64,000 nt of DNA from the sequence record PQ850613.1; one strand, given 5' to 3'. This stretch comes from Escherichia phage KarlSchell_Bas89. The translations under genes and the position numbers were made by a program. Below are positions 29,100 to 51,474 of this stretch, piece after piece; position 1 is the first letter of the stretch; each line of letters begins with the position of its first letter. The notes below the pieces were generated by a model. The model searched no databases and had not been told where the DNA came from. It saw only the letters and a list, made by a program, of their open reading frames with translations.

Positions 29100-29603
29100 T
29101 CAATCTTTTTTAAACTCTCCATGATATTCCTCTCTTTTACTCTTAAGCCATCTATGTAAATATAAGATATCGTATGAAGATTTCGTGTAAGATTTACCTG
29201 ATATGTAAATTCGAGCCTGGTAGTATCCCGGATTCTTTCCTCCATGAGAGTTGTCATGAATACCTTTAGGTAAAGAATCTCTTTTACTGCTCCAACCTCT
29301 AGTATTCCTAGCACTTTCCTTCGCATTACAAAGTCTAAGATTTTCTATTGTATTGTTGTCTAGGTTATTATCTATGTGGTCTACTAAAAACCCTTCTGGG
29401 ATAGGTCCATTATGGTACTCCCAAACCAACCGGTGAGCTTTAATTCTTCCAGAGTTTTTGGTGTTGATTTCCCAATAACCTTTCTTGTTTTTCGTACCTA
29501 CCACGCTTCCTATTTTTACAAAAGGGGCTGGTTTACTCTTCCAGAGAAATCCAGAAGGGGATTCAGAGGAGTATAGAAAATGGGTCCACTTTTCTTCACT
29601 CAT
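29100..29603 (-). CDS. HNH homing endonuclease
   Basis: 'HRLVWEYHNGPIPEGFLVDHIDNNLDNNTIENLR' HNH_3-type motif. Confidence 0.8.
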   Translation of the reverse strand: MSEEKWTHFLYSSESPSGFLWKSKPAPFVKIGSVVGTKNKKGYWEINTKNSGRIKAHRLVWEYHNGPIPEGFLVDHIDNNLDNNTIENLRLCNAKESARNTRGWSSKRDSLPKGIHDNSHGGKNPGYYQARIYISGKSYTKSSYDILYLHRWLKSKREEYHGEFKKD

Positions 29604-30406: not shown

Positions 30407-31255
30407 TTACCCATTATCAATATCCTTATTCCAAATTTTATCAAGCCATGACCACTCGAAGAGGTCTTCTGGTGTTTGACCTACGAATAGGAGACGAGCA
30501 TTCTCAAGCATCTTTTCTTCCCATTCTGTATCAAACTTCTTATAATATTCCATTCGCACTATATGATAAAGAGTCCACTTATCACTTACACCTTGTAAAA
30601 GGTTAATAGCAGCTTTCTTTCCAATCCCTTGACGACGGAGTTGTAACTTACCTCCCCACATGACTTCTTCACGCTCGCCACAACCGGGAATGTTGTCTGT
30701 GCCATCACCAATAAGCATTTGATAAAAGAAGTTTTGCCAAGCAACCTCATCTGATACGTAGTGAGGAGGAACCTCTTTCTGCCTTTCTCCACATGCCCAC
30801 CGATAATGCCATCCGGGGGTTATCAATAAATCTTTGTCTCGTGTGCAGATGATAGTGTTCTTGTCAGTTCGCTGCCTTTCTGCTAATGCATCGTCAGCCT
30901 CTCTTCCATAAACACCTACATACTCGTAGTTATTTTTAATGTAATCACCAACGTTCTGCCAGTGGAAAGGTCTTTCTCCCGGAGGTCGGTTGGCTTTGTA
31001 CCCTTGCTGCTTTGCTACATCAAAACGGAAGTTACCGCCTTCGCTGAAGTAGAAGATTGTCTTTCGGCAACCAGCGCGAGCAATGATTGTATCAATTTTA
31101 TTTTGAAGTCGTTCAATTAGAAATCCATAATCTACTGGTGTACGTCCTGTATCTAGGAAAGGATGCTCCTGAGTCAGAGCACCCACTTCGTATCGGAGAA
31201 CATCAGCATCAACCAAAGCTACTTCAGGATACTTAACATCTTCCATAAACATCAT
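30407..31255 (-). CDS. 5'-3' exonuclease / flap endonuclease
   Basis: 'GYKANRP' and 'DGTDNIPG' motifs typical of the FEN / 5'-3' exo family; track start is TTG. Confidence 0.75.
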   Translation of the reverse strand: MMFMEDVKYPEVALVDADVLRYEVGALTQEHPFLDTGRTPVDYGFLIERLQNKIDTIIARAGCRKTIFYFSEGGNFRFDVAKQQGYKANRPPGERPFHWQNVGDYIKNNYEYVGVYGREADDALAERQRTDKNTIICTRDKDLLITPGWHYRWACGERQKEVPPHYVSDEVAWQNFFYQMLIGDGTDNIPGCGEREEVMWGGKLQLRRQGIGKKAAINLLQGVSDKWTLYHIVRMEYYKKFDTEWEEKMLENARLLFVGQTPEDLFEWSWLDKIWNKDIDNG

Positions 31256-31847
31256 CCCGAGTTTGAGCAATAATCCAATCCAAATAATATCGAGCTTCCG
31301 AAATAGTCCGATTATTATATAATGTGCAAGTTTCTAACTGATTTCCTTCAATATAATTCCTAGAATCTCCAGAAAAATCACATCCCTCTCTTTTGACTTG
31401 AACTACTACTACATTGAAAGACTTCTCTAACTCTCTTACCTCTGCTTCAAACCCACCGTCCGTAAACAGGATAACATCATTATGATTCCTCCCTTCTGCA
31501 TTGATGCTGTTTACTGCTTGGATTCCCATATAGTTCTCACCAAACATAGGTTTTAAGTAATCTTCACTTGTGGAAATCATTAAATCCCTAACAGATCTCC
31601 CTCCCCATTCAGGTCTAGCCTTTTCTTTCCAGTCTCGGTCTTTATACAACTCCAGAAAATCCTCCAACTGCAAACCTAATGCTGCGGAGGCTACTTTGTA
31701 CATAGGCTCTTTAAATGATTTAGCATAACGGGAATAAGACGCAATGTGGGATTTTAGTAACCACTCCTCAGCTATCGTGTCTTTACCACAACCCGGAGGC
31801 CCATTGAGAATTACTACTAAAGGTTTAGACTTATCAGTCATTTCCAA
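31233..31847 (-). CDS. P-loop nucleotide kinase (dNMP-kinase-like)
   Basis: Walker A 'GPPGCGKDT'; ~200 aa. Confidence 0.55.
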   Translation of the reverse strand: MEMTDKSKPLVVILNGPPGCGKDTIAEEWLLKSHIASYSRYAKSFKEPMYKVASAALGLQLEDFLELYKDRDWKEKARPEWGGRSVRDLMISTSEDYLKPMFGENYMGIQAVNSINAEGRNHNDVILFTDGGFEAEVRELEKSFNVVVVQVKREGCDFSGDSRNYIEGNQLETCTLYNNRTISEARYYLDWIIAQTRDDVYGRC

Positions 31848-35462: not shown

Positions 35463-35945
35463 TTAGATAGTTAATTTGTGATCTTCCTCCGCTCTGTTTC
35501 TGACAGAGACGGCTTCCTCTAGGGTTGAGAAAGTTCCTAGGTATTTAGTTTTACCTTTAATGTGTATGTTGGCTATGTACTTCCCTCTTGAATTGAGGTA
35601 CACACCCTTAGCCCCTGAGGTGTTGTTAGAATTCAAACCCTTATTCCAAGAGTTATTCTCGTTGTTAACCTCTCTAAGGTTGCCTATGGAATCATTGGAA
35701 GGATTTCGATCAATGTGGTCTATTTGATCTTTAGGTAAAACGCCATTAGCAAAATACCAAATGATATGGTATCTGTAAATAGCTCTTCCTTTCAATCGAA
35801 TAAACACTCTTCCATCCTTTTTTGAAGTTCCTGCCTCATCACCTCGCCTGCATTTTGTTCCGTTGTGAATTCTCCAGAACACTTTCCCAGATGATAAATC
35901 ACAAACAAAGAACTCATCCAGAAGATCTTCTATCATATCATGCAA
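35463..35945 (-). CDS. HNH homing endonuclease with AP2-like domain
   Basis: 'YRYHIIWYFANGVLPKDQIDHIDRNPSNDSIGNLR' plus 'KGVYLNSRGKYIANIHIKGKTKYLGTFSTLEEA'. Confidence 0.8.
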   Translation of the reverse strand: MHDMIEDLLDEFFVCDLSSGKVFWRIHNGTKCRRGDEAGTSKKDGRVFIRLKGRAIYRYHIIWYFANGVLPKDQIDHIDRNPSNDSIGNLREVNNENNSWNKGLNSNNTSGAKGVYLNSRGKYIANIHIKGKTKYLGTFSTLEEAVSVRNRAEEDHKLTI

Positions 35946-37834: not shown

Positions 37835-38316
37835 TCAATGTGTGTGATTCCAATTTAATCCAATCTGACAGTCAGATGCCAGAGGGCATTCCATCTTGAG
37901 ATACTCACCAGCTTTCTTAACACAAAGCTCTGTAAGCTCTTTTAGCTTTTGTGCATCATTACGGTGAACAGAGAACTGCCCTTCATCGTGCATGTCAATA
38001 ACCTTCGCACAACGAACACCATCACGCTCAATCCACTTGTTAAGGAAAAGCATGGCATACTTCATAACAATCGCACCAGCACTCTGTAAGAGAGTATTCA
38101 GTGCTTTATGAACCATTACCTTGCCTGTTGCATCACGTCTCATTGTAATACGACGACCATCAACACCCAAGATATAACCTTGAGCTGCTTTCTCTGTCAT
38201 ACGCTCAATAAGAATTGCAATACAAGGATTCTCTGCCAAGAAACGTGCTCTCATTACTGCACCTTCTTCAGAGCCTCCACCAACGATAGAACCGAGCTTA
38301 GCATCACCTGCCCCAT
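37835..38316 (-). CDS. DNA polymerase (family A, T7 gp5-like) exon 2: C-terminal palm with motif C
   Basis: 'GAGDAKLGSIVGG', 'HKALNTLLQSAGAIVMK' and 'DMHDEGQF' match family-A motif B (second half) and motif C; frame is open upstream of the track ATG to 38323. Confidence 0.75.
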
Positions 38317-39096
38317 CAATAGTTCAAGCAAAGGCGCTACTCTTTGCTCCGTTCTCTTATGAACTGCTTACAGTTTCCTGTAAGATCGGACTATATCTTC
38401 ATCTCCACCTTTACGTGCTGAGAGACAGGCGCTTCCGTAACACTTGTTACGTACTCCCTTCCGGGATAGTCTCTGAACTTTCCGTGACACAAACTTTTCT
38501 ACATAGATCAATGAACTGAGCATCAGATAGTTTACCTTTTGCATTATTCACTTCCCAAGTTACCCATTGGACATTTCCAATTTCGTAACCTTTCGAATTA
38601 TCCTTCCTATCTAAAGAAAGTTTATTCGGGTGTCCGCTGACGAAAGATAGTGAATCCCCTGTCAAGGCACATTTGTAGTTTTGCTGAGAAAGAAGCTCGA
38701 ATAAATAGTCTTGAGTAATCGTGAACTCAAAACCCCTTTCTCTAGCTCTGTGATGGGAGTTGTGATATCTCTCACGAACCGCTCCACCCCAAGTTTGTCG
38801 ATATTGTCCCATAGCAGCAGATGCTGCACTTCTGTTTCGACGTCTCCACTCATTTGAAGCAATGCGAGCACAATTTTTACATTGACATTGCTTTCCATCT
38901 TTACTCTTAGATGAATTATGGAAACTGTCGAGTGGCTTTTCTTCGCCACAGCTTGAACATATCTTTGTCATAAACACCTCCTTGTGTTGATGTTTATGTC
39001 ACGGCTTAGCTGCTGATTGGCATATCTTTCGACTTAGCTTTCCAGCAATTCACCTGTTTTGCTTCTGCACATTTCTATGCAGTGAACCAATTATTT
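38317..39096 (-). other. group I-type intron (780 nt) in the DNA polymerase gene, carrying a homing endonuclease ORF
   Basis: 5' exon ends in U (39097); candidate guide GGUU in the intron pairs with exon AACU (U-G at splice site); intron ends in G (38317); splicing rejoins FIYAF-NYGAGD and the joined exons total 1845 nt. Confidence 0.6.
38447..38971 (-). CDS. intron-encoded HNH-type homing endonuclease with N-terminal zinc ribbon
   Basis: Own RBS AAGGAG before ATG 38971; 'CSSCGEE...CQCKNC' zinc ribbon; C-terminal 'SLDRKDNSKGYEIGNVQWVTWEVNNAKG' HNH-like. Confidence 0.6.
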   Translation of the reverse strand: MTKICSSCGEEKPLDSFHNSSKSKDGKQCQCKNCARIASNEWRRRNRSAASAAMGQYRQTWGGAVRERYHNSHHRARERGFEFTITQDYLFELLSQQNYKCALTGDSLSFVSGHPNKLSLDRKDNSKGYEIGNVQWVTWEVNNAKGKLSDAQFIDLCRKVCVTESSETIPEGST

Positions 39097-40459
39097 AGTT
39101 AAAGGCATATATAAATGTCTTCGCATTGTCACGAGTAGGAAGACCAGCAAGTCTCTGGTTGTGGGAGTGGATATCACCTTCTAATAAAATGTCACGATAC
39201 ATAACAGCAGAAGCTAAACCACGTTCAGCCAATGCTTTCTTACCAGCGTTACCTTCTGCAATGGCTTCAGCAAGCATGTCTCTACACTCTTTAATGAGGT
39301 AGTGAGCAAGCATACGAAGCTCTAATCCAGAACCGTCATAACCTAAGAAGAGTTCTCTACCAGCTGGTACATAATATTTATACAGACCTACCGGTTTGTC
39401 TTTCTTTCCGGGTTTTCCACGTTCGTAGATAACGTTTGTATTTTTTCGTAAGTAACACCCATCAGGGATATTGTTGGTAATGATGAAAGGATAGTTATGA
39501 CTATCATCTGTGGAGTAGTTAGATTGAAATAAACTCCTACACTCGTGACCAAACAAACCGCGAGAAGGAATATTAACAACAATGCGATGTTTAAAACGAA
39601 ATGTCGGAGTAGCGCAGCTATTAGCTTCCGCTGAGAGTTTACCATCTGGACGTTCCTTATCAATCAGTCCATTAATCAAGCCTAGTCTGTGAGCCGCTAC
39701 AACACGTCTCTTAAGCAGACTTCCCACTTTACCTAGATCACCCTCAAGACCTTCTTCAAGAGTCTCTTCGAGGTTTGTAGGAGCTGTGGGCCACTTGTTT
39801 GAAGTAGCTAATGCTCTCTTAATTTCATCAAAGGTTACAGGTTTCTTCCTGTTAGGGTTCAAACCTAAACCAAAGACATAAGCCTTCATGTAGTTGACAG
39901 TTTTGTGACGGAAGTGCTTATCCAAGAACTTCTTGATATCAGCATCAACCATCTGAGCTGTCTGTCGCTCTTTCTCATTGCCACGCATCCAAGAGTTGTA
40001 CCATTCTTGATACGTTCCACACTTACGCATGGCTCGCTTAATCTCAAATGTGTTCCAAGGCTTCTTAGATGTATTAAATTCTGGAGGAAGAAAACCTTCA
40101 TCCATCAGTGCTTCTTTAACTCGTGCATCCTTTGATGGGTCAAAGTCAACATACTCAACACAAGTAAAAGCTCCACCAATATCTTCTCTCTTTAACCCTA
40201 CTCTGTCGCAATATAATTGAGGCCACTTCTGAAGAGCACCAGTCTTCTTAAAGGGTTTCATGTAAGTAGAGCCATCAACCCTCATCTTAGGTAACAGAGG
40301 AATTAATTCTCTGTCGATGTTAACGATAATCTCTCTGAGAAGGTGAACATACCACCGTGCATTCCTCCGATTAAAGTTGACACCACTCTTCGCTTGCTTT
40401 GAAATTATATCAGCGACAGTCATCTCCGTTAAGAACGGAAGTACATCAGGGTTCTCCAT
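39097..40459 (-). CDS. DNA polymerase (family A, T7 gp5-like) exon 1: polymerase domain through the first half of motif B, no exonuclease domain
   Basis: Motif A 'LGYDGSGLELRMLAHY'; motif B start 'RDNAKTFIYAF'; RBS AAGGAGAGG before ATG 40459. Confidence 0.75.
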
Positions 40460-40474
40460 CACCCTCTCCTTTTA

Positions 40475-40852
40475 TTATCGGTATAGTAAATCTGTAAATG
40501 CTTGATTATCTGCTATTACATCCAAAGCCTCATCCGTGCTAGGAGTTTCAGCTTCTTCTACTTGGTACACAACCTCACGCACACGGAAAGCTCTTGCAGG
40601 AACCCTAAAGCCAGCATGTCTCTCCATAACATCTTTCTGAACCTGTGCAAGTTTCATACCCCACACTTCTTCATAAAGCTCTGGATGTTTATTACTAATA
40701 ACTACATATTGGCGATGTACGGATTTCGACTCTCTGACCTTAGCTAGTAACTCATTAAACAGGTCTAACTCTTCTTCAGAGAGTGCATCCACAATATCTT
40801 CCCACTTCTCTACACAGAAGCGGTGGGCATGTCTGATAGGTAATGGCATCAT
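40475..40852 (-). CDS. hypothetical protein
   Basis: 125-aa ORF in coding orientation. Confidence 0.35.
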   Translation of the reverse strand: MMPLPIRHAHRFCVEKWEDIVDALSEEELDLFNELLAKVRESKSVHRQYVVISNKHPELYEEVWGMKLAQVQKDVMERHAGFRVPARAFRVREVVYQVEEAETPSTDEALDVIADNQAFTDLLYR

Positions 40853-41107
40853 TTACCCCTTAGGGAAAGGAAGAAGATTTTCTACTGCAACACGATAAAC
40901 TTTTTCTACGTTTTTGTTTTTATAGGAGATAAACTTGCCATCAGCACCACGAAGAATTACATTAGTGCGAGCAGTCTTCGGGTTCTGGGAAATCTGACCA
41001 GCAATGATAGACGCATTAATCGCATTATCAGCGAAGTTAGCAAACTTCCACTTAACCAGTTTATTGGAAATTGAATCGATGATAGTTACAGTTTTTACGA
41101 TAGACAT
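40853..41107 (-). CDS. hypothetical protein
   Basis: 84-aa ORF, adjacent to the upstream stop. Confidence 0.35.
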   Translation of the reverse strand: MSIVKTVTIIDSISNKLVKWKFANFADNAINASIIAGQISQNPKTARTNVILRGADGKFISYKNKNVEKVYRVAVENLLPFPKG

Positions 41108-41166
41108 ATTTTATTACCTAAAGGGTTTGTATAAAAGAAAAGGCCACCCAAGCGGGTAGCCTCTGA

Positions 41167-41661
41167 TTAACTAGAGCTTAAAGCGTGTCTGATAGCTGTA
41201 TGGCTTACACCAAACATCCTACCTAAAGCTCTTGTTCCAAACTGAGCAGAACCTTTGACATAAAGGTTTTTAACTCTTTTAACATCCTCTGTATTAAGTT
41301 TCATTCTAGGGTTTATGTTCCTGTGATGGCCTACATTAAGACCTGTATCAAAAGAATGTTGAACATTCTCAGAAGCATCTGCCCACTCTAGATTCTCAAT
41401 ACGATTATCACTTTTTACACCATTCTTATGATTTATCTGAGGTTTGTTTTCAGGGTTAGGTATGAAAAAGGTTGCTATCAACCTATGAGCTTTCCATGAC
41501 CTCCCTTCAAAATAAACCCTAATATAACCTTTAGTGTCTAAGTGGCCAGCCTCTTTACCCGGATGGCTCTTATTCCACTTAAAACCTTTTGAAGATGACT
41601 CTGTGTAAAACAGACGACCAGAATCTCTATCATAAGAGAGGTAGTCGGATATAGGAATCAC
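41167..41661 (-). CDS. HNH homing endonuclease
   Basis: 'HRLIATFFIPNPENKPQINHKNGVKSDNRIENLEWADASEN'. Confidence 0.8.
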   Translation of the reverse strand: MIPISDYLSYDRDSGRLFYTESSSKGFKWNKSHPGKEAGHLDTKGYIRVYFEGRSWKAHRLIATFFIPNPENKPQINHKNGVKSDNRIENLEWADASENVQHSFDTGLNVGHHRNINPRMKLNTEDVKRVKNLYVKGSAQFGTRALGRMFGVSHTAIRHALSSS

Positions 41662-41969
41662 TGACTCAGCGCCCCCTTCCTTCCACCATTTGATTTTCCA
41701 GCTCGATCTCCACTTTTGCCGCCAGCTGAACGATTGCTGCTGACTGTCTCAACACGTAAATTGCTTGACGCATTAGAGCCTCCTGATTTAATGGCTCGTT
41801 TGTGTCCGACATCTTTACCTTTGAGTGCAGATTTTCCAACGCGTTTCTCAACGATGCGACGTGCACGGTGGCGCTGAGCATCTCCGCTCTTACTTCCAAC
41901 TCCCGTTTCACCTCTTGCGATGGCTGTACGTCTTTCTTGTGCATAATCTCTTTTAGCCTTATCAGTCAT
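41658..41969 (-). CDS. hypothetical basic protein (frame choice uncertain)
   Basis: K/R/G/S-rich; overlaps an alternative-frame ORF 41666-41944 on the same strand. Confidence 0.3.
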   Translation of the reverse strand: MTDKAKRDYAQERRTAIARGETGVGSKSGDAQRHRARRIVEKRVGKSALKGKDVGHKRAIKSGGSNASSNLRVETVSSNRSAGGKSGDRAGKSNGGRKGALSQ

Positions 41970-42027
41970 TTACAACTCCTTAATATATCAGTGTACACTA
42001 AGGAGTATACATTATGAGAGGGTAGCT

Positions 42028-42768
42028 TTAGTTGCCACCCTTCTCCATAGCTTTAACGATTGCTTTACAGAAACCAGAACGAACAATGTCATCCGAGTCG
42101 CCATCAACAATATCAGCGAACTCGTACAGATCATGCTCATCAATGAACTCGGTAGCCCAAGTAAGACCACTCTCCCGACCTTTCATATCGTGCTGGTTAG
42201 TGTCACCCATGCAGAACAGCTGGGATGTTTCACCCAAGCGGGTCATGATAGAGAATGCTTCATCTTTGGTTGTATTCTGGAACTCATCCACAATAACAAT
42301 GGCATCATTGAAAGAGCGACCACGGAGGTATTCCAGAGGCACAAACTCAATATTCCCATTACCAAGCTGGCATTCATAAAAACCTTTACCATATCGCTGA
42401 GTAATCACATCAACAATAGGCATCAGGTATGGTTCGAACTTATCACGAAGCCCACCCGGAAGTAACCCAAGAGAATTACCCATGCCAACAGAGGGTCGGC
42501 TAATGATAATCTTTTGAATCTTACCACTCTTCAGTGCATCAATGACAGTAGAGGTGATGACGAATGTCTTACCACAGCCCGCAGGAGCGTCTGTGAACAC
42601 CACTTGTTTAGTCTTGATAGCATTGAGTAGCTCAGATTGAAACTGATTCTGAGGGACCACTGGCTTCGCTAAAACAACCTCTTCATACTCACGCTTACCT
42701 TTCTTGGTGACTAAGGCTTCACGACGTAAATCTTTACGAGATTCTCTACGGGACTGTCTACGGCTCAT
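42028..42768 (-). CDS. phoH: PhoH-like ATPase
   Basis: Walker A 'DAPAGCGKT' and Walker B 'IVIVDEFQN'. Confidence 0.8.
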   Translation of the reverse strand: MSRRQSRRESRKDLRREALVTKKGKREYEEVVLAKPVVPQNQFQSELLNAIKTKQVVFTDAPAGCGKTFVITSTVIDALKSGKIQKIIISRPSVGMGNSLGLLPGGLRDKFEPYLMPIVDVITQRYGKGFYECQLGNGNIEFVPLEYLRGRSFNDAIVIVDEFQNTTKDEAFSIMTRLGETSQLFCMGDTNQHDMKGRESGLTWATEFIDEHDLYEFADIVDGDSDDIVRSGFCKAIVKAMEKGGN

Positions 42769-42950
42769 TTGCGCTCTCCTAGCTCTTCGTAATTAAATAC
42801 AGAGGTTCGACAATCTTTACATATTGTTGTATAGACTCGAACATTAATGAACTTCTTGTTCTTCCCTTTGGTGGGTGAGCCTTTAGCAAGCTCACTGATA
42901 ACTTTAGAACTTAAGTTTAGGTTTGTGCCTTCACATTTAGAGCACTTCAC
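42765..42950 (-). CDS. small zinc-ribbon protein
   Basis: 'CSKCEG...CKDC' pair of CxxC. Confidence 0.35.
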   Translation of the reverse strand: MKCSKCEGTNLNLSSKVISELAKGSPTKGKNKKFINVRVYTTICKDCRTSVFNYEELGERK

Positions 42951-43113
42951 TCAGGCTCACCAACAGTAACTTCCAAAACAACTTGAGAGATGATGTTGTT
43001 GATCTGTTTGATTTGCTCATAAGTCAGTTGCATACCTTTCATTTTCCGAGGGGCATTACTTCGTGCTCTTCGCTGACGATAAAAATTGTTCTTTTTGACA
43101 GAGTGTAAGCTAC

Positions 43114-43344
43114 TCATTTTAAATCCACCAACTCAAGATTCCACCAAACATCTTCCATTCTCGGCGAACGCCCACCGAATGAGTCGTCGCAGTTCTTGTT
43201 GTTTAGGGTGTAATCGATAGAGTAACAAGGCACACCTTCATCTTCTAGCTGCTTTCGAGTCGGTTTATCTTGGAACACAGCTTCGAAGTATGAACCATCT
43301 TGATCATATTCATTTATTTCACGAGTTAGAACCCATACTTTCAT
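43114..43344 (-). CDS. hypothetical protein
   Basis: 76-aa ORF in coding orientation. Confidence 0.3.
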   Translation of the reverse strand: MKVWVLTREINEYDQDGSYFEAVFQDKPTRKQLEDEGVPCYSIDYTLNNKNCDDSFGGRSPRMEDVWWNLELVDLK

Positions 43345-43562
43345 TTCACAACCTTAAACTTAAATGTTGTTGGGTGGTAGTAGTGTAACCTGTTTATTGT
43401 GTGCTTAGTCTCATGATACAGAACACAAGAGTGGCACATTGAATGGTGCAAACAGGTTACTGGATTACGTTTGAAATTGGCAATAAGCTTCCGCTTGTTA
43501 CAGAAGCTACATGTTTTGTGTAAGTCCATTAACTCTCCAGAGTTTTCCTTAGAGCTGACCAA
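43341..43562 (-). CDS. hypothetical Cys/His-rich protein
   Basis: 73-aa ORF with 'CSFC...CLHHSMCHSC'. Confidence 0.3.
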   Translation of the reverse strand: MVSSKENSGELMDLHKTCSFCNKRKLIANFKRNPVTCLHHSMCHSCVLYHETKHTINRLHYYHPTTFKFKVVK

Positions 43563-44185
43563 GAAATTGGGTAGAGTTTAGCCATCTCTTCATCTAATGA
43601 CTGAGCAAACAGTCGAACTTCATACTGAGCATGGGATGATAGTCGTTGACGACACAATTCAAACCAGCCATACAAGCTACCAGTCCAGACCCACTCAGTA
43701 ATCATTCCCTGAGGAAGAACAAAGCGAGCTTGCTCTGGTGCAATAAATTCAATTAGCTTATCATACGCTGCCAGTGAAGCTTCGTATGCATTATTGATCA
43801 GCATTAATGCTTCGGCTCGTTCTCCGTTGACAAGCTGTGTCCCTGAACCTGCATGGAGGTCCGAAGGTCTCGCAAAAATCTCTTTAGGGATGAAGACTTC
43901 AACTGCTCCATCTTTATACCGCCGGGACATTTCGTTCCACGAGAACCCAATTTGGTGTTTTCCAAGCTGTCTCGCAATTGCGATAGGTGCTTTGCATCGG
44001 AAACTGACTTGTGGGTGTCGGAATGGCGTAACATGCTTCTCTCTTGCGAGAAAGTTGATGAGACGTTCATCGCGATCATTTAAATCACCTTCGCGGGTTA
44101 CGCCAAAGGAAACTCGAGCTGCGTTTACTACGCTACGATCACTTCCCATAGCTTCGATTAATGTTGCTTGTAATTGTTCATTCAT
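43529..44185 (-). CDS. thyX: ThyX-family (flavin-dependent thymidylate synthase-like) protein, divergent
   Basis: Region 'HVTPFRHPQVSF...RQLGKHQIGFSWNEMSRRY' aligns by eye to the ThyX RHR-x7-S block, but reads KHQ where RHR is expected. Confidence 0.5.
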   Translation of the reverse strand: MNEQLQATLIEAMGSDRSVVNAARVSFGVTREGDLNDRDERLINFLAREKHVTPFRHPQVSFRCKAPIAIARQLGKHQIGFSWNEMSRRYKDGAVEVFIPKEIFARPSDLHAGSGTQLVNGERAEALMLINNAYEASLAAYDKLIEFIAPEQARFVLPQGMITEWVWTGSLYGWFELCRQRLSSHAQYEVRLFAQSLDEEMAKLYPISWSALRKTLES

Positions 44186-44204
44186 CCGTGAATTTCCTTA
44201 TTTC

Positions 44205-44480
44205 TTATTTAATATCCAAAGCTGTTACTAAGAAAGCTTTCAGGTTTGCTTCAGTCTGCATACCAGATAAGCTATAATGTGCTCCGCTGTTACGATTAGG
44301 CACAATGAAAGCAGGAATGCTTCGTACACCGTACTCGATAGCTCGCTCACGACCGTTGCCTTCGAGGATATTAACCTCTTCAACTTCTAGGTTAAGCTCT
44401 TCAGCTAATTTGTTGAGGGTAGGAGCCATTGCTTTGCAAGGGGCACATTGATTACTATAAAACTTAATAATTTTGTTCAT
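44205..44480 (-). CDS. thioredoxin-like protein
   Basis: CxxC active site 'CAPC' in a ~90-aa thioredoxin-fold-sized protein. Confidence 0.65.
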   Translation of the reverse strand: MNKIIKFYSNQCAPCKAMAPTLNKLAEELNLEVEEVNILEGNGRERAIEYGVRSIPAFIVPNRNSGAHYSLSGMQTEANLKAFLVTALDIK

Positions 44481-44487
44481 AAAAACC

Positions 44488-44742
44488 TTAAGCAGTGATC
44501 AGGTGGAGGGTAAATGGGATGACCACAGAGATAATAACCCAAGCAACAGATGCGATTTGGATTTCATTCTTCTTGTCCGGTGTCTCTTCAATAAGTTTCT
44601 TGCTGCCATAATAAACACCGCCGCCAATGAGAAGTGCCCAAATACTCCAAATGGTTGCTGATAACATATTCAATTCCTTATAAACAAGTTCGCCCCACCT
44701 CGGATTAGGAGACAGGGCGGAGGTTTTAGTATGAGACGTCAC
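44488..44742 (-). CDS. small two-TMD membrane protein
   Basis: Two hydrophobic segments 'LSATIWSIWALLIGGGVYY' and 'IASVAWVIISVVIPFTL'. Confidence 0.4.
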   Translation of the reverse strand: MTSHTKTSALSPNPRWGELVYKELNMLSATIWSIWALLIGGGVYYGSKKLIEETPDKKNEIQIASVAWVIISVVIPFTLHLITA

Positions 44743-45310
44743 TGGAGTGTGACATGTTACTTTTAACGAAGTAGCAATACTTGCCTAACCCTTCGTTGAT
44801 TTCTTGGAGCATGCTCTGGTCAACTGGATACTCGCTCAAACATCCATCGAACTCATCCATTTTGTCAATCATGCACATTAAAGACATGCACATATCAGAG
44901 AGCATACCATCCATATCTAGGTCTGCATTTCCTTCAGAGAACCAAGAGTGTGACAAGTAGTTAGAAGCAGTTGCATCCACCTTAATACAGTGGAAACGCA
45001 TACGTTCAGCTATCCGATCACCTGTCTCACGAGCATAATCTTCCAGCTCATCAAACATTCCATGAACACCCTGAAACCCTGCACCAGATACGTTCCAGTG
45101 ATAATTCTTAGCTTTGATATGCAAGAGTTCTAAGTTAGCTTGAATACCGCATAGAATGTGTTCTAGGCTGTTTCCACTAATCATCCCTTGCATACGCTCT
45201 AAACGGGAGATAGAAGAGTCTGTTTCACGTAATACATCACGGAAAGAAGTCTCTTTTGTTAGAGTTGGTAAGTCGAAAACATTGTGATTAGACATTAGGA
45301 TTTTCTCCAT
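44726..45310 (-). CDS. Dps/ferritin-like protein
   Basis: 'HWNVSGAGFQGVHGMFDELEDYARETGDRIAERM' matches the Dps ferroxidase-site signature. Confidence 0.6.
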   Translation of the reverse strand: MEKILMSNHNVFDLPTLTKETSFRDVLRETDSSISRLERMQGMISGNSLEHILCGIQANLELLHIKAKNYHWNVSGAGFQGVHGMFDELEDYARETGDRIAERMRFHCIKVDATASNYLSHSWFSEGNADLDMDGMLSDMCMSLMCMIDKMDEFDGCLSEYPVDQSMLQEINEGLGKYCYFVKSNMSHSSDVSY

Positions 45311-45617
45311 CAAGTTCTACTGAGTTCGCAACATTGCGTTCCAGATTTGAGATTACCTGTTGGGTGATAACGATGCAGTTCTGTGGGTCAACTGACTTAG
45401 AACGTCCCATCTCAGGGTCATACACCTTAACACGTTTTGCTGTAGAACCAGTTACCTGTAACACCTTGAGAAGATAACCCTGATTCCCGATAGACCATGC
45501 AACAACATCACGATTCTTGATGAATCGACCAAGCATATCACGATGGTAGAACTGCTGCATAACCTTTGATTTATTAATCTCTTCGGCTGGCGGAGCCACT
45601 TTACTCAAATCTAACAT
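45288..45617 (-). CDS. hypothetical protein
   Basis: 109-aa ORF; promoter-like motif upstream. Confidence 0.35.
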   Translation of the reverse strand: MLDLSKVAPPAEEINKSKVMQQFYHRDMLGRFIKNRDVVAWSIGNQGYLLKVLQVTGSTAKRVKVYDPEMGRSKSVDPQNCIVITQQVISNLERNVANSVELDGENPNV

Positions 45618-45654
45618 TTCACTCTCTCCTGTTTAATACAATATTCTTATACTG

Positions 45655-45664
45655 TATATACATT
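45655..45664 (-). promoter_or_regulatory. promoter-like motif AAATGTATATA on the minus strand, ~38 nt upstream of the 45617 gene
   Basis: Plus-strand tatatacattt; 9 of 10 match to TAATGTATAT. Confidence 0.35.
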
Positions 45665-45689
45665 TGAGAGTGATCATATCTACTACCAA

Positions 45690-45902
45690 TTAGTAGTAAA
45701 CATATCCAGAGATATATGAGCCTTTATCCCCACTAAACTCAAACCATCGATGCATGTCAGCACGTTTAACCGTACCGACTAGAGCTTTCATATTCTTCTT
45801 AGCAATACGAGCCTCTTTACGAGTGTTAAACAGTTTGATATTATCTTTACCTAGATGGTGTCCATCTTCCCAAACAACACGAACAGCCCACATCTTTTTC
45901 AT
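45690..45902 (-). CDS. small basic protein, tandem paralog 3 of 3
   Basis: Shares 'K.W.VRV...R.EAR..KK...G.YISG.V.Y' with the two upstream ORFs. Confidence 0.45.
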   Translation of the reverse strand: MKKMWAVRVVWEDGHHLGKDNIKLFNTRKEARIAKKNMKALVGTVKRADMHRWFEFSGDKGSYISGYVYY

Positions 45903-46117
45903 TAGTAATGCACCTTTCCGCTGATATAAATACGGCCTGAGGTATACTCATAGCCCTTGAGAATCTTGACAGAGGTAAGATATCCAGTGTGTAATTCACT
46001 GAACGATTTCTTAAGCCTACGTGCGCCTTCTCGTGTTTTCTGGTAGGTCATGGTCACACCCCCACTTGTCCACTCTGTTCTAACTAACCAAACTCTTTTC
46101 ATAAGACCTGCTCTCAT
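45902..46117 (-). CDS. small basic protein, tandem paralog 2 of 3
   Basis: Same family pattern; stop-start overlaps on both sides. Confidence 0.45.
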   Translation of the reverse strand: MRAGLMKRVWLVRTEWTSGGVTMTYQKTREGARRLKKSFSELHTGYLTSVKILKGYEYTSGRIYISGKVHY

Positions 46118-46314
46118 TAGTAGTACACCTTGCTGCCAGCCATGAAAGCCCCTGTCGAGCTTATAATAACCTTACTGATAGTAACTTTCTTATGCCGGAA
46201 GTATGTCTTCCAGCCCTTTTTACAGATTCGAGCTTCTTGTCGAGTCTTACAAAAGTCAGCCAAAGACAGCTCTTGGGTTTTGTTATCATAAACACGAACA
46301 CACCACTTTTTCAT
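46117..46314 (-). CDS. small basic protein, tandem paralog 1 of 3
   Basis: Same family pattern; ends in YY. Confidence 0.45.
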   Translation of the reverse strand: MKKWCVRVYDNKTQELSLADFCKTRQEARICKKGWKTYFRHKKVTISKVIISSTGAFMAGSKVYY

Positions 46315-46839
46315 TTATCTTTCATCCACATTAAAGGAGAGATGGAGTCTGCTTCTCATAGACTTAGCTAAAAGTTTTGCCTCTTCGAGAGTTTTCACTC
46401 CATATACAGACTCACGTTTACCATCTTTTTGAACAGAGACACAGAACGTCCCACCTTTCTCTTGGTAGACATTCTTAATCCCTAGCTTGTTATCAACTCT
46501 GGTCTTAGCATTCTGACTATTTTCAGAGTGAGAACACTTTCTCAGGTTAATTTCTTCTAGATTCCCTCTGTTACCATCAGCGTGATCTATTTGATATTCA
46601 TCCGATAAATCCTCACCAGTATAAAGAACAAAAAGAATCCTATGATTATGGACACGAACTCCTCCTAAGGGAATTTGGTAATATCCATCTTTTGTGAGTT
46701 TTCCAGCAGGTTTCCCTGCTATATCATTAGCAAATTTACTAGGCTTCCTTTTCCAAGAAAGCCCTGACGGGGATGACATGTCTATGTTAAAAAGATCAAA
46801 CACTTCATCATAGCATATCAGCATGGTTTGTTCCACCAA
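46315..46839 (-). CDS. HNH homing endonuclease with AP2-like domain
   Basis: 'HNHRILFVLYTGEDLSDEYQIDHADGNRGNLEEINLR' plus 'GIKNVYQEKGGTFCVSVQKDGKRESVYGVKTLEEA'. Confidence 0.8.
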   Translation of the reverse strand: MVEQTMLICYDEVFDLFNIDMSSPSGLSWKRKPSKFANDIAGKPAGKLTKDGYYQIPLGGVRVHNHRILFVLYTGEDLSDEYQIDHADGNRGNLEEINLRKCSHSENSQNAKTRVDNKLGIKNVYQEKGGTFCVSVQKDGKRESVYGVKTLEEAKLLAKSMRSRLHLSFNVDER

Positions 46840-47362
46840 AAGCTTTTGTTGGCCCTTGTTGGTTATTGTATGAACCTTTAGTTGCGTAACTATCTTCTTC
46901 AGAGGAGGAGTGTTTAAAGAACTCCATTTGACCGATACGCATTCCCGGCTTAATTAGCAAAGAGTGATGCTGTAGGACGTTCTTGAATTCCATAGTAAGT
47001 TGGCTCCCATGCCACCCACCGTCAGCATGACCAGCGTGCATGTGCTCTAAGAAGCAACGACCAACAGTGGACCGTAACATGAAGTCACAACTAATATTAT
47101 CTGGCAGGTTGAATGTCTCCACTGTATGAGCCAAGAAGCACTCACCCGGTTTGATAACTAAACCTTCTTCTGGAATCATAACCTCGTTGAAGTTAGGAGA
47201 CTCTTTAGCGGAGATATCAACAACCCCATTAGCTGCTCCTTCCATCAGAACACGGTCTCCAATACGAACATCAATACTGGAGGAGTTAACAGCTGAGTGA
47301 GGTGCATCAATAACACCATCATCGATTAGTTTATGTAATTCCGGACTTCCTAATAAACTCAT
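46808..47362 (-). CDS. dcd: dCTP deaminase (dUTPase superfamily)
   Basis: Collinear with E. coli Dcd by eye: 'IDVRIG', 'KPGECFLAHTVE', 'AGHADGGWHGSQLTMEF', 'IKPGMRIGQMEF'. Confidence 0.8.
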   Translation of the reverse strand: MSLLGSPELHKLIDDGVIDAPHSAVNSSSIDVRIGDRVLMEGAANGVVDISAKESPNFNEVMIPEEGLVIKPGECFLAHTVETFNLPDNISCDFMLRSTVGRCFLEHMHAGHADGGWHGSQLTMEFKNVLQHHSLLIKPGMRIGQMEFFKHSSSEEDSYATKGSYNNQQGPTKAFGGTNHADML

Positions 47363-47376
47363 TCTTATTCCTTGTA

Positions 47377-48657
47377 TTAATCTGCGATACTATCGCTTTC
47401 ATCAACCCAGACTGTACCATTAACCTGTCTTAGACGACGAGCTGACGCTTCGTTAATAGAGTTAACCCCTGCTGTGCGAGGGTTTGTGTACCAAGGTCGA
47501 GCTATGGTGCCCTCTCGAATCACTTGGTTCGTTTCGACATGCCATCTGTTTGATACCATGTTGGCTTCAAAGTTACCACCCGCTCCACCACTGATAGGCA
47601 CAGCTTGAGCTGGTTGGTTTACTCGGTTAGTTCCTGCCCCAAAGGATGCTGCAAATTCAGACATACGTGCATCAAATGCAGAACGAACACGCTGAGTAGG
47701 TGATATATCATTTCGTGTATCTACTGCACGAGGCATAGCCCAAGTATCATCTGTTGAGATATCAGGGGTAGGCTCTTGCTCTAGAGGTTGAAGATTAGCT
47801 GTCCATTGACTGTTCAGTATACGATAGAAATCTGCACCATAACCACTTCGGATAACATCTTCTCTGATACCAAAAAAGCGACTAATATCTCCACCGATTC
47901 GGGCCAACTTATCGTTGTATGTAGATACAGATACCCCACTTTCTGTTACTAAGTCAGAAACACGACTTGTTGTAAGTGGTGAGTTATTCCAACAATAATA
48001 GTCAGTAATGTGGCCGTCATACCCAAAGTATGCAACCTCTGCATCAGGCCATTTCTTGTGGACATATGCCACTTCGCGAGTAGAACAAACAGGGATTGCG
48101 CCTGTTTCAGTCATTGCATAGAAGCCGTCAGAAGAGAACCAAAGTGAGTCTAGTGCTAAGAATCCACGACACACACTTGGGAAAGTAGCAGCCAGCGCCC
48201 CAAGTGAGGTGGGTTCGTTGAACATTAACTGAACCTTTGCACCCTGATAATCAATCTCTAGGATATCTACAAAATTCAAAGAAGACCCAGGGGCATATTG
48301 ACTATTACTTCGTCCAATATCCTGCTCAACAAGAAGAGATCTTGTTTCAACACCATGAGCCTCTGCCCACTCTTTGAAATCTTCAAGGAACAAGCGAGCC
48401 TTAGCTCGCCACATCGACCGATCAGTTACGGATTGTCTCGGCAATCCGCCCTCTGTAGTGATGAGGAAGATATCAATGTCATGGGGCTCACGCGTCTGGA
48501 AGATTGCATCCCTAACAGCACCACCTGCAATGATAGGGTACACACCATCAGGGATTAAACGGTTTGCAATCAACTCGTTAATTAACGTAAGACCAGACAT
48601 AAGCTGCGGACTGTCATCAATCCGACGACGAATTAGTGCATTAGGGATATTATACAT
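47377..48657 (-). CDS. pol-beta-superfamily nucleotidyltransferase (CCA-adding / poly(A) polymerase-like head) with a long unknown C-terminal region
   Basis: 'IIAGGAVRDAIF...PHDIDIF' matches the GGxVRD...DxD nucleotidyltransferase signature; directly abuts the exonuclease gene. Confidence 0.5.
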   Translation of the reverse strand: MYNIPNALIRRRIDDSPQLMSGLTLINELIANRLIPDGVYPIIAGGAVRDAIFQTREPHDIDIFLITTEGGLPRQSVTDRSMWRAKARLFLEDFKEWAEAHGVETRSLLVEQDIGRSNSQYAPGSSLNFVDILEIDYQGAKVQLMFNEPTSLGALAATFPSVCRGFLALDSLWFSSDGFYAMTETGAIPVCSTREVAYVHKKWPDAEVAYFGYDGHITDYYCWNNSPLTTSRVSDLVTESGVSVSTYNDKLARIGGDISRFFGIREDVIRSGYGADFYRILNSQWTANLQPLEQEPTPDISTDDTWAMPRAVDTRNDISPTQRVRSAFDARMSEFAASFGAGTNRVNQPAQAVPISGGAGGNFEANMVSNRWHVETNQVIREGTIARPWYTNPRTAGVNSINEASARRLRQVNGTVWVDESDSIAD

Positions 48658-49206
48658 TTACATTTTCCAATATAAAGATGGGGGGTCATTTGGGTCAAAG
48701 TTTGCAATATGACAAAGATATTTATAAACCTTAACCGTTAAGTTTACATCCTGTTCACAATAAGTAAACATGTCCTCTGTAAAGGCATCCCATGCTTCTT
48801 CCTGTTCACCGTAATCACCCTTAAGCTCTTCTAAGAACTCACCCCATTGCTTTAAGCCATGACCTCTTGGGCCATGTCTAGGGTCGCCTTTCGGATACTC
48901 AGGACTGTCACCAATACGGTCAGGTTTAAGATACCGACTCAGACATAAAGTGTCTAGGACGTTGAATTTGTAATCAATCAAATCAGGGTACATCTTCTTC
49001 AGAGCACATAAGTCGAAGTCAATAACGTTATGACCTACAACAACATCAGCCTCTGTAAGTTTCTTGATACCCTCTTCAATCTGGTGAGGACGAAATCCCC
49101 ACCGTTCACCAGTTGCTATATCAAAGATAAAGATACACCATACGTTTGTGATATCGTCGTACAGTGCATCACTCTCAATATCAAATGCGTAGACTTTCTT
49201 TACCAC
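48658..49206 (-). CDS. 3'-5' exonuclease (DnaQ-like; homolog of the T7 gp5 N-terminal exo domain) as a separate gene
   Basis: Exo I 'FDIESD', Exo II '[16 protein letters not shown]', 'YCEQDVNLT'; 182 aa; GTG start with GGAG RBS. Confidence 0.75.
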
Positions 49207-50990
49207 GGGCTTTTCTCTCCATCTTGAGCAAGAAGTGATGCTGCATCCTCTCCATTTGTCAGCGAGAATGGATTTTCTTCATCAATTTCATGTTCTTCAC
49301 GCTCAAGCAGTCGTCCCGTCTCTCCTACATATTTCGTATAGCACACCCCTGTTTGTCCATAGTTACGCTCTTTGAGGAGTCGTATAATGGAGAGGTTCTT
49401 AGCCAGACCATCTGCTTGTTTGTCACGTTCAAAACCGATGATACATTGACACCAACGCATAAGAGAACGAGAGCCAGTAAACTGTACCTCTCGAACCTGA
49501 CCACCTTCTTCATGAGGTGCACCACCTGCCGGAGCATTGAGGTGAGATAATACGAATGCTGTGAAGTTTAATTCTTGACACATACCAGCAAGCTCGGAAG
49601 CAATCTTACTGATTTCAGTGTTAATCTCTGAAGGTGTTAAATGAGACACCAGAGCGGTAATATTATCAAGGATGATAAACTTACACTGGTTTTCAACAAC
49701 CCAGAAACGGATACACTGTTTAATGTCGGCCCATTCATTCTGACCAAAGTTATCATAGAGGAAGAATTTATCTGCATATCGAAGAGCTTCGTTACGCAAT
49801 GTATCTTCATCATACTCAACATCAGGTCTGTGGAAAGGGATAGATGCTGACTTACCTGCAATGTTCTTAACGGACATTCCGACCTTCTCTTCCAAGAAGA
49901 ATCCACCACCATTAAAACCATGCTCAAGACAAAGCCAAGCAACCAGTTCATGTGCAATCAGTGTTTTACCAGAGCCTACACCGCCACCAATTGCTACCAT
50001 CTCTCCCCAACGAATACCGTAGGTCATCTCATTAAGAGTCTTCCACGGATATGGGATACCCCACTCTGCTTTCTTCAGAGCATCATCTAAGCAATCAAAA
50101 ACAGTTACAGCACCAGCTGGAGATTCACGCTTCGCTGAATATTTAAGAATGTTAAACAACTCCTGACCACGACCAGAGAGAAGCATATCATTCGCATCTT
50201 TAAGTTCTTTCTCAACACCATTGTACTGGAAAGAACCTTTAGGAATACGAGCAAACTTCACATGTGGGAACAGAGCACGCCCTTTGGTAAGAGCAATCTC
50301 ACCAGCATCATCGTTGTCCATACAGAGGACAACCTCTTCAAAACCATTCAAGAACTCACGGTTGCGAGATAGAACGGAAGAGATTGACCCTGCACCGAAT
50401 GGTAAAGAGACACACGCTGGTTTAATGTTTGTTGCATTTGTAAAAGCTGTAAGAACGTGGAAGCCAGACATACAAGACAAGGGGTCTTCAAAGATGAAGA
50501 GCTTCTTATTGTACACATCTCCACGTTTAGCCTGTGCCATACCAAACAAATCAGCTTCTTTCACACTACCGATGTAATAAAACTTTTTACTATCGAGCAG
50601 TTTAACCTCATAACCGACAATGTTTCCATCACGTTCACGAGGGAAGAAGTAACTATCCGGTGTCTGACCATCAGTTTGACTGAGACCTATACGACACTCA
50701 AAACGCTCTGATACAGCTTTAGGGATTAATCGACGAGTGAGTTCTCCTTGAGGTAACTCCAAGCAATCATCCAAGACTTCTCGAAGTTCTTCAGGGGACA
50801 GCTCTTTCTTTTCATTTGGTGTAGGTGTCGTGCCTTTCTCAAAGACTTCGTAATTACCACACCGGTTGCAACTTCCAAAAGTTTCTTCAGTTTCTTCGTT
50901 ATGAAACAGAATCATATGATTGCCGGTCTTGTCCCTACCATGTGACTGGCATTCTTTACAAGCGCAATCTCCAATAATCTTTTTAGACAT
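49200..50990 (-). CDS. primase-helicase (T7 gp4-like); start trimmed to ATG 50990
   Basis: Zinc ribbon '[10 protein letters not shown]...CNRCG'; helicase Walker A 'GGGVGSGKT'; 'IILDNITA'; 'HLNAPAGG'. Confidence 0.85.
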
Positions 50991-51474
50991 ATAATCTCCA
51001 TCCGTGAGTTTGTTTATATTCTCCGCTATATAACCTGTAAAGGGCGGCAGAATCAACACCAGAAAGCCTTGAAAGCTGTCTTATACTATCACCTGAAACA
51101 ATTTCCCCATTACTAGAGACGATCGACATACTCTTACCAAAAGAATATATCTGATTGTACTCAGAAGTGCACCACTCTAGATTCTCTACCAGATTATTAT
51201 CTGGCTGTTCATCTATATGATTAACTTGAGGTAAGTTTTCAGGGTTAGGAAGGAAAGCTATAGCTACTAATCTGTGTACACTTCTAGTACATTTAACACC
51301 TTCAGAGTTTGTCATTCTCACGTAAAGATATTTACGACTATAATGTAGAGACTTGATAGCTGGCTCTGTGGGAGGTTTTCTCCCACGTCCAGTAATTCTC
51401 CAAGATCTTATACGTCCAAAGGATGAAACCTCATACCCCGGAAAATCTGTAATTGGTTTCCATTCTTCTGACAT
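50983..51474 (-). CDS. HNH homing endonuclease
   Basis: 'HRLVAIAFLPNPENLPQVNHIDEQPDNNLVENLEW'. Confidence 0.8.
   Translation of the reverse strand: MSEEWKPITDFPGYEVSSFGRIRSWRITGRGRKPPTEPAIKSLHYSRKYLYVRMTNSEGVKCTRSVHRLVAIAFLPNPENLPQVNHIDEQPDNNLVENLEWCTSEYNQIYSFGKSMSIVSSNGEIVSGDSIRQLSRLSGVDSAALYRLYSGEYKQTHGWRLYV

Follow-up and report, generated by a model that had tools for sequence, protein, structure and literature searches.

The window, a 64,000-nucleotide stretch of Escherichia phage KarlSchell_Bas89 (PQ850613.1), encodes a T7-like family A DNA polymerase, and its sequence supports a layout in which proofreading is encoded ~8 kb away from the polymerase function, on a gene of its own. The source is a phiEco32-like podophage (Gordonclarkvirinae) with 96–97% DNA identity to KBNP1711 and EP335. 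The split between exonuclease (Exo) and polymerase (Pol) is real, yet it was previously described for the phiEco32-like group. Overall, the region is probably a standard phiEco32-like replication module with a split gp5-type polymerase, a predicted self-splicing intron and an Exo that would proofread in trans (Table 1).

Table 1. Positions in the window of the split polymerase genes, the intron and neighbouring genes
Feature	Position	Strand	Evidence
Pol exon 2: remainder of motif B (YGAGD...), fingers, motif C (MHDEGQ), stop codon	37835..38316	-	Pfam DNA_pol_A on 139-aa ORF
Predicted group I intron, 780 nt	38317..39096	-	Rfam RF00028 half-matches; exact insertion relative to EP335
Intron endonuclease ORF, 174 aa from ATG	38447..38971	-	PHROG 1035; RBS and ATG
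Pol exon 1: residues 1–454 and first base of codon 455	39097..40459	-	EP335 DNA alignment, splice reconstruction, hhalign
Exo-pol spacer, 8.2 kb, 20 ORFs	40463..48657	-	ORF list, Pfam/PHROG matches, KBNP1711 and EP335 annotation
HNH_3 endonuclease gene, in spacer	41167-41661		
Phage thioredoxin gene, in spacer	44205-44480		
HNH_3 endonuclease gene, in spacer	46315-46839		
Stand-alone 3'-5' proofreading exonuclease, 182 aa, GTG start	48658..49206	-	Pfam PF01612, PHROG, phmmer, motif alignment
T7 gp4-like primase-helicase gene	49200..51059	-	Pfam DnaB_C and Toprim_2; KBNP1711 annotation as DNA primase/helicase

The exonuclease and polymerase proteins

Exo scores 26.6 bits against Pfam DNA_pol_A_exo1 (cut-off 23.6), matches PHROG families named 'DNA polymerase exonuclease subunit', and aligns to residues 4–182 of T7 gp5 (phmmer, E 6e-9), the only solved structure related to it. 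It is a DEDDy (DnaQ-like) 3'-5' exonuclease in which all of the motifs sought are present (Exo I, DxE; Exo II, Nx3[FY]D; Exo III, Yx3D). The catalytic positions are invariant in an alignment with T7, LUZ24 gp25 and GAP52: D9-I-E11 of Exo I corresponds to T7 D5/E7, D65 of Exo II (H59-N60..F64-D65) aligns with T7 D65, and Y149..D153 of Exo III corresponds to T7 Y170/D174. Exo is 39% identical to the fused exonuclease domains of marine T7-like phages and 35% identical to the free exonuclease of LUZ24. Taken alone, these levels would be compatible with a fused gene that underwent fission as well as with fusion in the T7 lineage.

Pol, as obtained by splice reconstruction, consists of 614 amino acids and matches the Pol of EP335, which has no intron, save for a few substitutions. 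It scores 84.5 bits against Pfam DNA_pol_A and contains each of the family A motifs tested (A, D..LE; B, R...K...Y...YG; C, HDE), as T7 gene 5 polymerase does (K522/Y526/Y530 and HDE equivalents). In 37 homologs D375/E380 of motif A, R443/K447/Y451/Y455-G456 of motif B and H564-D565-E566 of motif C are invariant. With a Pol family profile, residues 8–614 align to gp5 213–704 only (hhalign probability 100, E 2.7e-52). Nothing in Pol matches gp5 1–212 by hhalign, and the first 303 amino acids have no Pfam match even at E<=10. T7 polymerase is also the top Foldseek PDB match of an AF2 model (pLDDT 89) made from an 87%-identical homolog standing in for the window's own Pol, although this output carries no residue ranges and cannot alone settle the question of the N-terminus. 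A vestigial exonuclease domain at that end is ruled out by the hhalign start at gp5 213, the lack of a Pfam match and the long helices with which the model opens. A hidden domain behind the extra length of Pol (614 aa versus ~490 in T7) is likewise ruled out, as internal insertions account for the difference. Relative to T7, the extra segments lie at ~144–205, 320–365 and 386–415, whereas the thioredoxin-binding segment, which aligns to gp5 262–338, is ~20 residues shorter.

Together, Exo and Pol tile gp5, and the break falls in the linker between the two domains. Among solved structures T7 gp5 is the best relative for each half, which argues that both come from a single gp5-type lineage and against an unrelated DnaQ protein having been recruited. 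An ancestral gp5-type polymerase, in T7 a single 704-aa chain, would here be encoded as two proteins cut in this linker. A sequence-only reading of the window had anticipated much of this arrangement. Its 182-aa DnaQ-like exonuclease resembling the gp5 domain is borne out, with Exo III in addition to the Exo I and Exo II motifs it named, and no intact exonuclease domain is found in the first ~250 amino acids of the polymerase, which it had described as lacking one. It was also right to place the exonuclease beside the primase-helicase, ~8 kb and ~20 genes from the polymerase. The polymerase ORF that it credited with motifs A, B and C is correct as to the motifs, all of which occur in spliced Pol, but not as to the ORF, because the gene is split by a predicted intron.

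Gene order and probable proofreading in trans

The exonuclease gene directly follows the primase-helicase gene, and the pol gene, lacking an exonuclease domain, lies further downstream on the same strand. The stop codon of the primase-helicase gene, which encodes a C-terminal acidic tail (...DGEKSPW), overlaps the exonuclease start by 7 nt (GTGGTAA), and Exo would be translated from this overlapping start codon. Both the layout and the overlap are shared with KBNP1711, GAP52 and LUZ24. The order primase-helicase, exo and pol follows that of T7 genes 4 and 5. In addition to the thioredoxin and the two HNH_3 endonucleases, the spacer encodes a nucleotidyltransferase, a dCTP deaminase, a Dps/ferritin-like protein, ThyX and PhoH.

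By analogy, the most likely arrangement is a non-covalent complex of Exo with Pol in which Exo proofreads in trans. This would rebuild a gp5-like enzyme within a T7-like replisome; the phage thioredoxin is possibly part of the same assembly. E. coli Pol III provides a precedent of this kind, in that a separate DnaQ-type proofreading subunit (epsilon) is bound to the polymerase (alpha). That polymerase belongs to an unrelated family (C), and the analogy is one of mechanism only. It is unlikely, though the best of the alternatives, that Exo is instead an independent nuclease (for repair, recombination or host DNA breakdown) or one attached to the primase-helicase, with Pol replicating without proofreading. 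In four divergent phages the gene to which exo is translationally coupled is that of the primase-helicase and not pol, and in the phiEco32-like clade an Exo-Pol complex is a prediction from analogy. However, synteny with T7 genes 4 and 5 accounts for the position of exo beside the primase-helicase gene. The only solved relative of Exo is the exonuclease domain of gp5, on which Exo ends where Pol begins, and the clade has kept every catalytic residue. In S-SBP1, which also has a split T7-like PolA, AF2 predicts that the separate exonuclease and polymerase still form a complex, and this model superposes on an unsplit polymerase (PMC10201439).

The insertion in motif B

Positions 37835–40462 contain a 455-aa ORF, which has the first half of motif B in addition to motif A, then an insertion of 780 nt that holds the endonuclease ORF (174/176 aa), and then a 139-aa ORF with motif C. 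Exon 1 encodes motif A (YDGSGLELR) as well as the thumb, its half of motif B reads RDNAKTFIYAFN, and the insertion bisects motif B between ...KTFIYAFN and YGAGD.... Removal of 38317–39096 exactly restores the reading frame of EP335. The boundaries are AACU/AAAU and ...CUAUUG/AUGG (slashes mark the splice junctions). A full-length copy occurs only in KBNP1711 (GenBank and RefSeq record) among 50,697 phage records.

The sequence of the insertion points to a group I intron, for which self-splicing is predicted. Pol would then be made only once the intron is removed from the pre-mRNA, rejoining motif B. It is very improbable that the insertion is a free-standing endonuclease cassette without splicing, leaving Pol as two reassembling polypeptides (455 + ~139 aa). 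KBNP1711 is given two separate polymerase CDSs in GenBank and RefSeq, and both half-matches to Rfam RF00028 (48.1 and 34.7 bits) do not reach the gathering score (50 bits), because an ORF of ~500 nt splits the ribozyme core. Against such a cassette, the matches to the group I core have E-values of 1e-10 and 1e-6. The terminal U of the 5' exon pairs with a G in P1 in the covariance-model alignment, and the last base of the intron is G. In Staphylococcus phage K-like phages, introns share ~80% identity with the 3' core. The cut also lies inside a codon (T/AT), and without splicing 20 residues between the ORFs would be lost, including Y455-G456 of motif B. Finally, the equivalent insertion in LUZ24, 12 nt upstream in the codon of T7 Y526 rather than Y530, has been demonstrated to splice in vivo (PMC10914365).

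The ORF within the predicted intron begins after P6 and extends into the P7 region. Its ATG is preceded by AAGGAGGT, and an upstream GTG at 38977 would give 176 aa. It matches PHROG 1035 'endonuclease VII' (E 4e-44), and its homologs in 263 phage records are annotated as endonucleases. No Pfam match is better than E 0.1, and Pfam, NCBIfam and PDB sequence searches gave nothing usable. With respect to the HNH and Endo VII-motif (DHHRN) families, Pfam HNH and Endonuclease_7 are not matched, PHROG 1035 being the only link, and a DHDH...R...N motif is absent by eye (the sequence reads LDRKDN...GNV...NN). The LUZ24 intron, which also interrupts motif B, contains in contrast an endonuclease of the DHHRN/Endo VII type (PMC6083498). 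The window's ORF would be a homing endonuclease, spreading the intron into intronless alleles such as that of EP335.

Further group I introns are found in other phage PolA genes (SPO1/SP82/Bastille, Pf-WMP3, phiL7 and phiI/W31). These lie at E. coli Pol I positions 674, 676 and 881, whereas that of the window lies in motif B at what we take to be the codon of Y766, equating Klenow F762/Y766 with T7 Y526/Y530. Like the intron predicted for the window, they are of the self-splicing type, are placed in a highly conserved coding stretch and carry an endonuclease ORF that starts near P6a (PMC3428280). It is conceivable, though somewhat short of an even chance, that the ~17 nt encoding motif B (K-T-F-I-Y-A-F-x-Y) form a multi-site intron hotspot in the clade of polymerases without an exonuclease domain. 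This tentative reading involves at least three insertion points (codons of T7 F524, Y526 and Y530), each in several divergent phages and with different endonuclease ORFs. The site in the Y530 codon and the endonuclease without a Pfam match may be previously undescribed. If the hotspot is real, the clade would offer a natural setting in which to study shifts of a few codons in the target sites of introns and homing endonucleases.

Age of the split and related phages

The sequence-only reading took the many homing endonucleases nearby to suggest fission or modular exchange. The replication cluster has at least six endonuclease ORFs, of which two lie in the spacer, but a recent split caused by them is extremely improbable, because each of their genes is a clean ~470–550 nt indel relative to KBNP1711 or EP335 (>95% identical), GAP52 and LUZ24 have the split with the same breakpoint and gene neighbours, and all full-length Pol homologs down to 30% identity lack the exonuclease domain (545–615 aa). 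Pol is 47% identical to that of GAP52 and ~40% to that of LUZ24 over the full length. Since the split is shared with these distant phages while genomes >95% identical differ in whether they carry the intron and the free-standing HNH genes, the split long predates the endonucleases, and that suggestion does not hold.

The closest known systems are the phiEco32/Kuravirus-like phages (KBNP1711, EP335, YF01 and SU10), which belong to the same group and have 78–97% DNA identity to the window. They too have a stand-alone exo beside the primase-helicase gene and a 614-aa Pol without exonuclease domain ~8 kb away. However, in most of them, such as EP335, the pol gene is uninterrupted, and the window's genome has a set of free-standing HNH genes of its own. 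The Pseudomonas phage LUZ24 (Bruynoghevirus) differs in its spacer of only 2.3 kb. In the S-SBP1-like cyanophages (Czernecki et al., NAR 2023, PMC10201439), as in the window, the two functions are on separate genes with an inter-domain break, and the thioredoxin-binding region is shortened. Their genes are adjacent and arose through a recent +1 frameshift, whereas in the window the split is old and 8 kb lie between the genes.

As a discovery, the split matters little, since separate exonuclease and polymerase genes were noted in LUZ24 and phiEco32 in 2008–2012 and in Kuravirus-like phages and S-SBP1-like cyanophages in 2023. It is stated for the LUZ24 group and phiEco32 in PMC3517423, which credits the 2008 phiEco32 paper, and for all Kuravirus-like phages in PMC9965538. 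Annotations reflect it as well: RefSeq uses "DNA polymerase exonuclease subunit", and LUZ24 has "DNA polymerase part I/II/III". The practical value lies in annotation: pipelines break the polymerase of this phage into two or three fragments, the exo gene of EP335 is given a start that is too late, and the intron deserves an annotation. For the biology of the group, the clade is a good case for repeated invasion of motif B by introns and for predicted proofreading in trans by a family A polymerase.

Exonuclease and polymerase

The stand-alone 3'-5' exonuclease (Exo) clears the curated Pfam cut-off for DNA_pol_A_exo1, and the PHROG families it matches already bear the name "DNA polymerase exonuclease subunit". 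Among solved structures its only relatives are T7 gp5 chains, with gp5 residues 4–182 aligned (E 6e-9). The DEDDy residues D9/E11, H59-N60..D65 and Y149..D153 (corresponding to T7 D5/E7, D65 and Y170/D174) are invariant when Exo is aligned with T7 gp5, LUZ24 gp25, GAP52_067, KBNP1711 and EP335. The T7 gp5-like exonuclease proposed in the sequence-only reading is thus borne out. Exo's start codon, GTG, overlaps the primase-helicase stop codon (GTGGTAA), and GGAGAG lies just upstream. The RefSeq start of the EP335 exo gene (L002 20376–20924) is placed late, giving 169 aa, and would cut off Exo I; the sequence upstream is intact and encodes the same 13-residue N-terminal start.

The same reading of a family A polymerase (Pol) lacking an exonuclease domain also holds. 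A profile built from 36 homologs of Pol aligns with T7 gp5 213–704 (hhalign probability 100, E 2.7e-52), and no Pfam family matches the first 303 residues even at E<=10. An 87%-identical homolog, modelled with AlphaFold2 (pLDDT 89), begins in long helices; the PDB folds that best match the model are T7 polymerase structures. Pol owes its extra length to internal insertions relative to gp5 (hhalign). Exo aligns up to gp5 residue ~199 and Pol starts at ~205–213, so the pair tiles gp5 and the break falls in the linker between its two domains.

In Pol the counterpart of T7's thioredoxin-binding region is kept but is ~20 residues shorter by hhalign. The phage's thioredoxin gene, with a CAPC active site, sits within the exo-pol spacer (44205–44480). 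The primase-helicase C-terminus (49200–49290) is an acidic tail with a terminal aromatic residue (...DGEKSPW), reminiscent of the tail with which T7 gp4 contacts gp5. Phage thioredoxin has been proposed as a processivity factor (PMC7881722).

An intron in motif B

The polymerase was first read as one ORF with motifs A, B and C, which is true of the joined product but not of the DNA. The region 37835–40462 consists of three ORFs (455, 176 and 139 aa), and DNA alignment with the uninterrupted EP335 pol gene reveals a single 780-nt insertion that splits motif B. When 39097 is joined to 38316, the product is a 614-aa protein equal to EP335 Pol but for a few substitutions. Rfam finds a group I core as two halves flanking an internal ORF (48.1 and 34.7 bits, E 1e-10 and 1e-6, both slightly below the gathering score). 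The terminal U of the 5' exon pairs with G in P1, the last intron base is G, and the 3' core shares ~80% identity with introns found in Staphylococcus phage K-like phages. By these sequence features the insertion is identified as a group I intron. The cut falls within the codon of the second motif B tyrosine (KTFIYAFN/YGAGD; T7 Y530), so an unspliced message would give a dead enzyme. Of the two closest relatives, KBNP1711 has the intron and EP335 does not.

The intron ORF matches PHROG 1035, "endonuclease VII" (E 4e-44), with no match in Pfam or PDB. In its C-terminal half it is similar to proteins of T4-like Klebsiella phages that are annotated 'Srd anti-sigma factor' (PHROG 1400). The copy in KBNP1711 gives a two-part match and has a shorter annotation, and may therefore be damaged.

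Within the exo-less Pol clade, introns interrupt motif B codons at three positions in a stretch of ~17 nt: L004 and BUCT695 have one at TT/T of the F codon (T7 F524), LUZ24 and L003 at T/AT of the Y526 codon, and the window and KBNP1711 at T/AT of the Y530 codon (slashes mark insertion sites). Twenty-one of the best 120 homologs of exon 1 end inside motif B. In L003, a metagenomic relative with a 78% identical Pol, a second insertion, which contains an HNH_3 ORF, separates H from DE of motif C (...VVDMH/DEGQF...), leaving the pol gene in three pieces. The reported site of the phiI/W31 introns is the same as that of this motif C insertion.

Coordinates of exo, introns and endonuclease ORFs (L004, L005 and L007 belong to the exo-less Pol clade)
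Feature	Genome	Position	Strand	Remark
Exo	window	48658–49206	-	182-aa ORF
Motif B intron	window	38317–39096
Intron endonuclease ORF	window	38447–38971	-	ATG at 38971, AAGGAGGT upstream
Motif B intron	L003	5349–6054
Motif C insertion	L003	6055–7146
Motif B intron	L004	5308–5998
Motif B intron	L005	5353–5965
Motif B intron	L007	9971–10639
HNH_3 ORF	window	29100–29603		free-standing; absent from same place in KBNP1711 and/or EP335
HNH_3 ORF	window	35463–35945		as preceding
HNH_3 ORF	window	41167–41661		as preceding
HNH_3 ORF	window	46315–46839		as preceding
HNH_3 ORF	window	50983–51474		free-standing; absent from same place in EP335, the one relative compared

Genomic context and mobile endonucleases

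From ~52 kb down to ~29.6 kb every window gene is on the minus strand, and there is nearly no intergenic space. The region is 96% identical to KBNP1711 (99% of a 3.5-kb query covered) and 97% to EP335; more distant matches are the remaining phiEco32-like podophages (subfamily Gordonclarkvirinae). Relative to KBNP1711 and EP335, the window contains clean insertions of ~470–550 nt, each with an HNH_3 ORF. Conversely, one HNH_3 ORF, located between the thyX and thioredoxin genes, is present in EP335 and missing from the window. This distribution marks the homing endonucleases as recently acquired passengers.

Immediately following exo, a 426-aa ORF (47377–48657) matches only PHROG 12715, 'nucleotidyltransferase', and nothing in Pfam or NCBIfam. 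Three tandem small ORFs (45690–46314; 70, 71 and 65 aa) are apparent paralogs by eye, sharing W-x-VR close to the N-terminus, a central R-x-EAR-x-x-KK and a C-terminal G-x-V-x-Y. A FEN-like 5'-3' exonuclease gene (30407–31270) has weak, below-cut-off matches to Pfam 5_3_exonuc_N and 5_3_exonuc, and its KBNP1711 counterpart is annotated 'exonuclease'. As it is separate from exo and pol, the three Pol I-type activities are all on different genes.

Conservation of the split

None of the best 120 Pol homologs listed, which reach down to 30% identity, has an exonuclease domain; full-length homologs are 545–615 aa. GAP52 (Grimontviridae; Pol 47% identical) shares the window's layout, with an overlap between exo and the primase-helicase gene and with pol 8.5 kb further downstream. 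LUZ24, with a Pol ~40% identical over its full length, is annotated in the order primase/helicase, "DNA polymerase part I" (overlapping primase/helicase), eight small genes, "part II", "endonuclease" and "part III". T7 genes 4 and 5 are collinear with the order primase-helicase, exo, pol. On these comparisons the layout is old and conserved. The arrangement is already known. An exo/pol split has also been described in S-SBP1-like cyanophages, with a preserved exo-pol complex predicted (PMC10201439, NAR 2023). The LUZ24 intron splices in vivo (PMC10914365).

The separation of the two genes noted in the sequence-only reading is real, with two corrections. One is the pol intron. The other concerns the homing endonucleases, suggested there as signs of fission or modular exchange: they come and go among close relatives, and since LUZ24 shares the split, the window's endonucleases and intron cannot account for it.

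Self-splicing of the intron would yield Pol, and the intron endonuclease would drive homing into intronless alleles. Exo, probably translated together with the primase-helicase, would bind Pol and proofread in trans within a T7-like replisome.
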